Positions 62,776 through 63,597 of a stretch of 64,000 nt of DNA are shown piece by piece; within the stretch, counting starts at the first letter, position 1, and each line of letters starts with the position of its first letter. A program made the translations under genes and the position numbers. The stretch lies in IMG/VR virus record IMGVR_UViG_3300046804_003398. One strand, given 5' to 3'. Below the pieces are notes generated by a model. The model saw only the letters and a program-made list of their open reading frames with translations, had not been told where the DNA came from and did not search any database. The stretch comes from a virus (Duplodnaviria; Caudoviricetes).

Positions 62776-63597
62776 TTATTAAGTGTTTGGCGTGAGATTA
62801 CCGCCTTCACTGTTGACCTTCGGTTAGATTATACCCATCTTGCGGACAGGCTTCCTAACTTATCCACGATCACGACTTGCGCCTATAATCGTATCCAACA
62901 TGACTGCCTTTTTAGGGTTGTGGCTTATCAACCTTAACCTAGAACTATTCAACCTTCATCCATCCGTCTGCCTTCGACAGCAGTTAAGTCTTGCGGACAC
63001 CGTTCAGACTCCGATTAACAACTAGTGTCTTGCGGACATTTCGTTGTCTGTGTTATCTTTCGACCACAGAGTTAAGTCACTTTCATCCTAGACAAACAAC
63101 GACTTTGCGTTTTTGTATATATGAACTGGATTTGAACCAGCAACACATAGCTTTACATAGCTATTACTCTACCATTGAGTTATCATGCACCTAACAATGA
63201 CGTGCGTTGTTTGTCGTTTCATATCCTTTTGGGATACAATATGCGACACGCCATTTGTGTTTCTCTTGCGGATACTTCACCGATTTTCAAGATCAAGTCC
63301 CTTGGTTGGCCTTTGGTCCTCTTTCTATCAATCTACATACGAGCATTTGATTGCGGTCTCACACCCGTATCTTTGGCTTAAATCTTACTCTTGGATGTTT
63401 TGCTGTGAGCAGTGGTCGGCGGCACCGTTACCGAACATATGCCAGTGTTACCCACACATGTTCTTTTTCTCACCATCGTCGGATATACTTCCACCTTTTG
63501 GATGAAAGTCACAGACTTTGCCATTTGTTTGAGTGTCCTAGTTGCCCAGGCGAGGGTCCGTTAGGGGACTACCTCTTTCATGAGTATTACTACTCAC
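62776..63597 (-). ncRNA. GOLLD-like giant structured ncRNA
   Basis: About 820 nt non-coding, higher GC than surroundings; four CCGCAAG (GCAA tetraloop) hairpins, CCCAAAAGG hairpin, 3' GGCGGTAATCTCACGCC end, embedded tRNA-like domain. Boundaries approximate. Confidence 0.7.
63117..63189 (-). pseudogene. degenerate tRNA-like domain inside the GOLLD-like RNA
   Basis: D arm ACTC-AATGGTA-GAGT, T arm GCTGG-TTCAAAT-CCAGT, 8-nt anticodon loop TATGTAAA, no CCA. Confidence 0.7.

Follow-up and report, generated by a model that had tools for sequence, protein, structure and literature searches.

GOLLD RNAs that carry a transfer RNA (tRNA) in their linker are already in the literature (Weinberg et al. 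2009; Kretsch et al., Nature 2025, PMC12286853; Morgado et al. 2020, via PMC12990946). We analyzed another element of this kind, a tRNA-like module with an 8-nucleotide (8-nt) anticodon loop, which lies within a GOLLD RNA in a 64,000-nt stretch of viral DNA (Caudoviricetes; IMG/VR record IMGVR_UViG_3300046804_003398). We will call the whole stretch the window. We think it fairly likely that a linker tRNA-Thr(UGU) was turned into a non-decoding, tRNA-shaped module that is retained in a GOLLD transcript of ~860 nt.

According to PMC12286853, the interior of the cage holds the linker, and the cage is drawn as "exposing the covalently linked tRNAs". The GOLLDs from env-38 and S. agalactiae are known to self-assemble into a multimeric cage (PMC12286853). 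Where the structural papers touch on function, they speculate that the linked tRNA is stored or displayed within the cage. A 2026 review places a tRNA-Phe in "J13/15" and speculates about "inhibited storage". The GOLLD of Mycobacterium aubagnense contains a pseudo-tRNA; the GOLLD was detected and a separate tRNA product was not (Behra et al. 2019, PMC6582537).

The element in the window belongs to the same RNA family as the published linker tRNAs. It occupies the same linker site, which follows the first hairpin in the 3' half, and it is also phage-borne and beside a tRNA array. The published examples are described as tRNAs (tRNA-Phe, for instance), whereas the window copy has an 8-nt loop without U33. 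It shares with the M. aubagnense pseudo-tRNA that it is a tRNA-like gene within a GOLLD, judged not to be a working tRNA. But the M. aubagnense element is in a chromosome island of an actinobacterium instead of a freshwater jumbo phage.

Loops of 8 nt are also found in frameshift-suppressor tRNAs, namely sufJ-type tRNA-Thr, sufD, and engineered quadruplet decoders (PMC9094753, PMC8481270). As in the window copy, the 8-nt loop can be on a Thr-type scaffold, with the extra base most simply placed 3' of the anticodon. However, the suppressors are free, CCA-ended, and aminoacylated, and they have U33, while the window copy is embedded and lacks CCA, with A33 and a mismatched acceptor.

Larger RNAs with tRNA-like modules include plant-virus RNAs with 3' tRNA-like structures, MALAT1 (mascRNA), and transfer-messenger RNA (tmRNA) with its tRNA-like domain. 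In these systems, as in GOLLD, the tRNA fold is a recognition module in, or cut from, a larger transcript. Unlike the GOLLD module, whose acceptor end is its least conserved part and whose anticodon arm is kept, they need both an intact acceptor and a CCA end, either to be charged or to be cleaved by RNase P. The element in the window is a further example of the known GOLLD linker tRNA or pseudo-tRNA, and its 8-nt loop is a small recurrent variant.

A tRNA-shaped module in a GOLLD linker

The initial annotation of this locus described a cloverleaf inside a "giant RNA" and did not recognize in it the known linker tRNA or pseudo-tRNA of GOLLD. This RNA is a GOLLD RNA of a freshwater jumbo-phage lineage. 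Positions 62789..63256 (minus strand) match the Rfam GOLLD family (RF02032) with 206 bits (gathering score 150; E values of 1e-56 to 2e-58), and the match spans the full model (positions 1-416 of 416). The conserved helices of the 3' half, among them the hairpin whose loop is A-rich and the long-range helix that follows the linker, are in the Rfam alignment with few mismatches. We took the 3' end of the RNA from the Rfam match, and we inferred the 5' end from a promoter and from the limit of homology with the GOLLD of a related contig, L121. The promoter is at 63660-63687 and the homology to L121 spans 63646 to 62731, so the 5' end should be near 63650 and the RNA should be about 860 nt long. 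The 5' domain is present (81% identity to L121), which gives the ~400-nt 5' domain and the total length of at least ~800 nt that are expected of a GOLLD. Its neighbors within 8 kb include 11 tRNAs and a tmRNA, and the relatives are viral contigs from IMG/VR. The features of the RNA and of its linker are:

62789..63650, minus strand: full GOLLD RNA, about 860 nt, with a variable 5' domain, a linker with the tRNA-like module, and a conserved 3' domain
62789..63256, minus strand: Rfam RF02032 match, with the conserved 3' half and the linker (Rfam alignment)
63660..63687, minus strand: sigma-70-like promoter directed into the GOLLD RNA (10/12 hexamer matches, 16-nt spacer, TG preceding the -10)
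63117..63189, minus strand: tRNA-like module, derived from tRNA-Thr(UGU) (ARAGORN, Rfam, covariation, and comparison with L121)
63183-63189 with 63118-63124, minus strand: acceptor stem of the module (cloverleaf reading, as for the next four)
63166-63180, minus strand: D arm
63147-63164, minus strand: anticodon arm
63125-63141, minus strand: T arm
63117, minus strand: discriminator base
63152..63159, minus strand: expanded 8-nt anticodon loop, UAUGUAAA, with UGU kept, A at 33, and one extra base on the 3' side
63102..63116, minus strand: conserved A-rich 3' end of the linker, from the tRNA to the 3' arm of the stalk (near-invariant in the family, from invariant columns in our alignments A2 and A3 and from the Rfam consensus)

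The module is in a linker that is unpaired and variable in Rfam (model positions about 63-125), with the first hairpin on one side and the long-range helix on the other. The same site in other GOLLDs holds Thr, Lys, and Cys tRNAs. The Rfam tRNA model (RF00005) aligns to 63117-63189 (minus strand) over its full length (1-71) with 50.5 bits, as compared to a cut-off of 29, and this score lies within 49.6-69.7 bits, which the ordinary tRNAs of the phage span. Also, all of the bases of the elbow and of the tertiary interactions were found: U8, A14, G18 G19, A21, G46, the T loop UUCAAAU, and G53-C61. T54 T55 C56, which are expected in the elbow of an elongator tRNA, can be read directly from the sequence.

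The anticodon arm and the acceptor are less regular. The anticodon stem has 5 perfect base pairs (63160-63164 with 63147-63151) around the 8-nt loop. Alternatively, the first and last bases of the loop pair with each other, which gives a 6-bp stem and a 6-nt loop; both ARAGORN and the minimum-energy fold show this form. In both drawings, the anticodon arm is 18 nt instead of 17. An elongator tRNA would have U33 and, at 37, a purine in a loop of 7 nt, but the module has A33 when its UGU is aligned to the anticodon of its sister sequences. Nor does it have the fully-paired 7-bp acceptor and the CCA of an elongator: 6 of 7 acceptor positions are paired, one of them as G.U, there is a C.A mismatch near the outer end, and no CCA follows. 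ARAGORN reports 63115-63190 (minus strand) as "tRNA-??? (gt)" and leaves Thr or Tyr undecided. The initial annotation had recognized most of this, including the canonical D and T arms, the expanded loop, the C.A mismatch, the lack of CCA, and the ambiguity between TGT and GTA, and our results agree with it on each of these points.

The phage has other tRNAs for threonine codons. A sibling contig (~96% identical) has 30 tRNA matches, which include free-standing Thr tRNAs with the anticodons UGU, GGU, and CGU. These free Thr tRNAs cover decoding, so the embedded module is redundant. CCA is encoded by 11/11 of the free tRNAs in the window and by 31/31 of the unique free tRNAs from the window and the sibling contig, and the embedded module is the sole exception. 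As judged from these comparisons, the module is built unlike the working tRNA set.

Relatives of the window copy and embedded tRNAs as a class

We gathered relatives of this GOLLD by pattern scans of contigs from IMG/VR and JGI. Five further contigs (L001, L005, and L254-L256) have an identical module (0 changes). In these contigs, the whole GOLLD has 0-3 changes per 921 nt, while the flanking DNA is about 5% different and the neighboring 1008-amino-acid protein is 11-12% different. The lack of change in the module despite the divergence of the flanks supports selection on it.

The initial annotation suggested looking for an intact tRNA at this position in homologous giant RNAs, and there is one in L121 and L040. 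Their GOLLDs are 84% identical to the window copy and have the same stalk (described below), and the tRNA-Thr(UGU) that they have at the same site is canonical, its loop (UUUGUAC) being 7 nt long. As compared to the L121 tRNA, pair 10:25 of the D stem is altered on both sides, pairs 29:41 and 30:40 of the anticodon stem are flipped, and two pairs of the T stem are altered with pairing retained, so that none of the changes among the 14 internal base pairs is disruptive. The acceptor strands are shifted by indels on both strands, and 6/7 positions still pair. The module is 73% identical to its counterpart in L121, versus 81% for the 5' domain and 89% for the 3' domain. It is the fastest-evolving segment of this GOLLD except for the 3' tail, and its changes preserve the fold. 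The loops of more distant GOLLDs are 7 nt long, which makes the 8-nt loop the derived one. These alignments indicate that the module descends from a tRNA-Thr(UGU), and that the 8-nt loop arose when U33 was lost and a base was gained on the 3' side, with UGU kept.

To describe the embedded tRNAs as a class, we compared 44 unique embedded modules (35 clusters) to 503 or 619 free tRNAs from the same contigs, using a cloverleaf parser that is anchored on the T arm and was run identically on both groups. The search pattern for this sample required a canonical T loop and the conserved end of the linker, and many of the members are related to each other. All 12 of the comparison loci that we tested are GOLLDs according to Rfam (166-214 bits). 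In 4 of these 12, the tRNA model aligns only locally and the acceptor ends are dropped. Linker tRNAs are not general in the family: among ~80 unique GOLLDs that were picked by their 3' motif, ARAGORN found only 4 distinct types of linker tRNA.

The inner part of the cloverleaf is strongly conserved in this class. Across 30 embedded tRNAs, the D stem is 99.2% paired, the anticodon stem is 98.7% paired, and the T stem is 96.6% paired, with many compensatory changes. The GG of the D loop, which the search pattern did not require, is invariant (30/30). The outer part is not conserved: the acceptor is fully paired in 3/44 embedded modules, as compared to 428/619 free tRNAs (p = 7.5e-17), with the mismatches at pairs 1:72, 2:71, and 3:70. 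Similarly, CCA is encoded by 1/44 embedded modules and by 329/503 free tRNAs (p = 1e-17).

The anticodon loops of the class are also unusual. A loop of other than 7 nt is found in 5/44 embedded modules and in 14/503 free tRNAs (p = 0.013, or 0.005 with cluster representatives). The other four embedded 8-nt loops (L173, L226, L240, and L252) are on Lys-type scaffolds, and in L240 and L252 the extra base is at the 3' position, as in the window copy. Anticodons that end in U are enriched (33/39 embedded versus 183/489 free, p = 8e-9; these are Lys, Asn, Thr, Arg(UCU), and Ile), but this bias may be inherited from one ancestral insert. L158, L169, and L199 have a near-identical scaffold with single-base differences in the anticodon (UUU, UCU, and GUU, respectively). 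By this comparison, the body is fixed and the anticodon drifts. The class signature of frayed acceptor ends, absence of CCA, and anticodon drift is not mentioned in the GOLLD literature that we examined.

According to the initial annotation, the elbow is retained while the decoding identity has decayed. The D, anticodon, and T stems (97-99% paired, with compensatory changes, in the 30 embedded tRNAs) agree with the first part. The second part is true of the window copy, which has lost U33, gained a base, and lacks CCA when compared to the 7-nt loop of its sister, but it does not extend to the class: 39/44 embedded modules have a 7-nt loop, and 38/39 of those have U33.

Two other tRNAs are unusual in their anticodons. 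The GOLLD-embedded module at L172:6759-6821 has a stop-reading CUA anticodon and a bulged T stem. A tRNA of L179, which has the same sequence context as L172, has a UUA anticodon.

We also noted several features of the free-standing tRNA genes. The 11 tRNAs that ARAGORN identifies at 55652-57856 of the window end with CCA and have a similar A/T-rich trailer (often ATTT), as do 20 further unique tRNAs in the sibling contig. The shared CCA and trailer point to a uniform context for 3' processing. The sibling contig (G002) contains a free tRNA-like gene (L268:1679-1754) which ARAGORN reports as "tRNA-??? (ctct)"; it has an enlarged anticodon loop and a variant T loop, and it encodes CCA. The neighbors of this gene in the upstream tRNA array are tRNA-Thr(UGU) and tRNA-His. 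Such enlarged loops in this phage are therefore not confined to the GOLLD insert. Two tRNA matches in the window were not called by ARAGORN: 57349-57430 (minus strand; 43.1 bits in Rfam) resembles the long-arm Leu(UAA) type, and 56652-56722 (minus strand; 34.3 bits) resembles the Gln(UUG) type with a non-standard T loop. The phage's tmRNA is at 55054-55438 (minus strand; 119.8 bits), at the end of the tRNA array.

Finally, we considered the distribution of the locus. The nearest record, G001, does not contain a GOLLD, and it is an 18%-complete fragment. A search of a phage database in distant mode, with 1.3 kb of the locus as the query, gave no match. In L003 and L004, whose homolog of the neighboring open reading frame (ORF) is 83% identical, an upstream GOLLD was not found even at E values of up to 1, so the RNA is not fixed at that position across the wider phage group. 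Upstream of the homolog of the 1008-amino-acid ORF, L004 has a tRNA-Gln(CUG) and a tRNA-Cys in place of the GOLLD. The neighboring ORFs of 1008, 107, and 234 amino acids did not match any Pfam or PHROG family.

The stalk and the pseudoknot

The module is enclosed by a perfect 11-bp helix, the stalk. Both the pairing and its position (63205-63215 with 63091-63101), as given in the initial annotation, were found again with a repeat finder and by direct reading. Each arm is 11 nt long, and the two are 100% complementary, with 103 nt between them. The stalk is one of just two inverted repeats of at least 9 nt within the 921-nt locus, but the significance of an 11-bp repeat by itself is weak. The nearby helices, for which we use the labels P13 and P14/L14, and the arms of the stalk are:

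63205..63215, minus strand: 11-bp stalk, 5' arm, located in the bulge that separates the P14 hairpin from the 3' strand of P13
63091..63101, minus strand: 3' arm of the stalk, followed directly by the long-range helix of the 3' domain
63248..63255, minus strand: 5' strand of P13, the outer stem of the first Rfam hairpin (pairs with 63196-63203)
63196..63203, minus strand: 3' strand of P13, inside the region enclosed by the stalk, which forms a pseudoknot
63218..63240, minus strand: P14/L14 hairpin with the conserved A-rich loop (Rfam alignment and covariation)

We counted covariation on alignment A2, which contains 30 diverse GOLLDs with embedded tRNAs, and we compared the results to 500 shuffles. 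The stalk is 81.5% paired, with double changes at 9/11 pairs; P13 is 84.6% paired, with double changes at 7/8 pairs; and P14 is 95.8% paired, with double changes at 8/8 pairs. The structure as a whole is 90.5% paired, versus 34-47% if the partners are slid by 1-3 columns. None of the 500 shuffles reached the observed pairing measures. PMC12286853 also describes an A-rich L14.

The initial annotation viewed the cloverleaf as mounted on the stalk. In a cruder scan that selected GOLLDs by their 3' motif, the stalk helix was also present, with other sequences, in GOLLDs whose linker is too short for a tRNA. Also, about 15 nt separate the stalk from the cloverleaf on each side, and the 5' spacer includes the 3' strand of P13. 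The stalk is a covarying core helix of GOLLD that closes the linker across the family, and the tRNA is not mounted on it. The 3' strand of P13 (63196-63203) is within the stalk, which makes P13 and the stalk a pseudoknot. Covariance models cannot represent pseudoknots, which explains why Rfam draws the bases of the stalk as unpaired.

Other potential pairings did not have this kind of support. A long-range complement between 63076-63088, which is past the stalk, and 63500-63512 in the 5' domain (13 nt, 92%) showed no covariation, and L121 has changes on one side only. An equivalent was not found in other GOLLDs, and the match may be due to chance. A kissing loop that joins L20 to the linker J13/15 has been published, so we examined 63191-63195, just 5' of the tRNA, which is complementary to 62912-62916 in a large hairpin loop of the 3' domain. 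The pairing at these positions (55%) was not distinguishable from shuffled sequences (43%), and in most of the homologs in alignment A3, the segment that corresponds to 62912-62916 is within a junction instead of a hairpin loop. We rejected pairing of the anticodon loop with its own GOLLD: the longest complement averages 5.6 nt, versus 5.5 nt in mismatched GOLLDs.

Possible roles of the embedded module

How might a non-decoding module be used? P13 and the stalk, as a pseudoknot, tie off the linker that carries the module. The module is tethered above this pseudoknot: ~5 nt on the 5' side lead to P13, and ~15 nt on the 3' side lead to the stalk. From the solved cage of env-38, by homology, we propose that these two short single-stranded tethers would hang the module in the interior of the multimer, and the module is probably located inside the cage. 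There it would be displayed as a tRNA-shaped ligand to a putative tRNA-binding partner, and it would be neither excised nor charged. The compensatory changes show that the stems of the cloverleaf and the elbow are held by selection.

Several considerations weigh against this proposal. Most of the embedded tRNAs keep the 7-nt loop, U33, and the purine at 37, as working decoders would, so part of the class may consist of genuine precursors of tRNAs. The host's CCA-adding enzyme could supply the missing CCA, and cleavage by RNase P is compatible with mismatched acceptor ends; it is by inference that we take the module to stay in the transcript. The tRNA part evolves faster than the core of GOLLD (73% versus 89% identity for the 3' domain), and recent common descent could account for part of the near-identity of the closest contigs. 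Lastly, the interior position is borrowed from env-38, whose own linker was unresolved in the cage.

A more specific proposal, which is doubtful, is that linker tRNAs in general are display modules without a working acceptor. The cage would show many copies of the elbow and the anticodon arm to an anticodon-loop binder, for instance a tRNA-modification enzyme or an anticodon nuclease of the host. This would fit with the anticodons being mostly NNU within a C32-U33...A37-A38 frame, and the 8-nt loops would be a recurrent selected variant, such as a binder that cannot be cleaved. If true, this would be the first functional handle on GOLLD cages.

Next, and unlikely in our view, the module could be a true tRNA precursor: RNase P and 3' processing would excise it, the host would add CCA, and the product would be used in translation, where it would either read ACA as a Thr decoder in spite of its odd loop or read quadruplets and cause +1 frameshifting, like laboratory tRNAs whose loops have 8 nt. 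The module's high tRNA score, its complete set of bases for tertiary interactions, and the UGU in its loop are as expected for a precursor. L240 and L252 likewise have the extra base on the 3' side of the loop, and the sibling contig has a free 8-nt-loop tRNA with CCA, which shows that the phage has such loops elsewhere too. Furthermore, sufJ-type mutants of tRNA-Thr with an enlarged loop do cause +1 frameshifting. However, the near-universal U33 of decoders is replaced by A, the CCA that is present in 31/31 free tRNAs is absent, and the outer end of the acceptor has both the C.A mismatch and the G.U pair. The free Thr tRNAs (UGU, GGU, and CGU) make another decoder redundant, and the sole published test of a GOLLD pseudo-tRNA detected no separate RNA. 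For a quadruplet decoder in particular, the size of the loop fits, but the lack of both U33 and CCA speaks against it.

After the precursor we place the hypothesis that the module is a decoy or sponge, present in many copies on the multimer, for a protein that binds anticodon loops. This is the version of our preferred explanation that names the partner, either a host anticodon nuclease of anti-phage defense or a tRNA-modifying enzyme, and it is improbable. tRNA-Lys is the classic target of anticodon nucleases. The bias towards anticodons that end in U (33/39 versus 183/489, p = 8e-9), the drift of the anticodon on a constant scaffold in L158, L169, and L199 while the C32 U33 ... A37 A38 frame is kept, and the dispensable acceptor end are all consistent with a decoy. 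But the frame is broken in the window copy (A33 and 8 nt), which is contrary to the expectation for a loop-specific decoy, and the bias may come from a single ancestral insert. Also, the partner is hypothetical and we found no direct support for it. Next to the GOLLD we did not recognize a defense or counter-defense gene, as the adjoining ORFs have no match in Pfam or PHROG.

It is less probable again that the tRNA shape is a processing signal which recruits RNase P, RNase Z, or both to cut the linker, with the halves of the RNA held together by the stalk and the P13 pseudoknot and with no further use for the excised tRNA piece. Punctuation of transcripts by tRNA-like elements is a known principle, as in mitochondrial transcripts and in MALAT1/mascRNA. 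The elbow and the inner part of the acceptor stem are conserved, in line with this, and the stalk and P13 could indeed keep the cut halves together. But most GOLLDs have no linker tRNA, so cutting is not essential to the family; the mismatches cluster at the end where RNase P would cleave (pairs 1:72 to 3:70); and a processing signal would not need an anticodon stem that is 98.7% paired or canonical anticodon loops.

It is very unlikely that the module is a neutral relic, that is, a captured tRNA that is decaying in a linker that tolerates any insert. In favor of a relic, the linker is the variable and disordered part of GOLLD, the tRNA part evolves fastest except for the 3' tail (73% identity to L121), and the module lacks U33, a canonical loop size, and CCA and has a mismatch in its acceptor. 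Against it, every stem change relative to L121 keeps the pairing (with the 14 internal base pairs undisrupted), the module is unchanged in five contigs whose flanks are ~5% divergent, covariation is strong across the family, and the GG of the D loop is invariant (30/30) without being demanded by the search pattern.

GOLLD is among the largest structured RNAs of bacteria and phages. Its cage has been solved, but there are few clues to its function, and the covalently linked tRNA is among them. As a single locus, the window copy is ordinary for GOLLD. Together, the window copy and the class comparison argue that the insert is selected for its tRNA shape and not as a working tRNA, because of the compensatory changes in the stems, the dispensable acceptor without CCA, and the drifting anticodon with recurrent 8-nt loops. 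This class signature gives a testable handle on the function of GOLLD.

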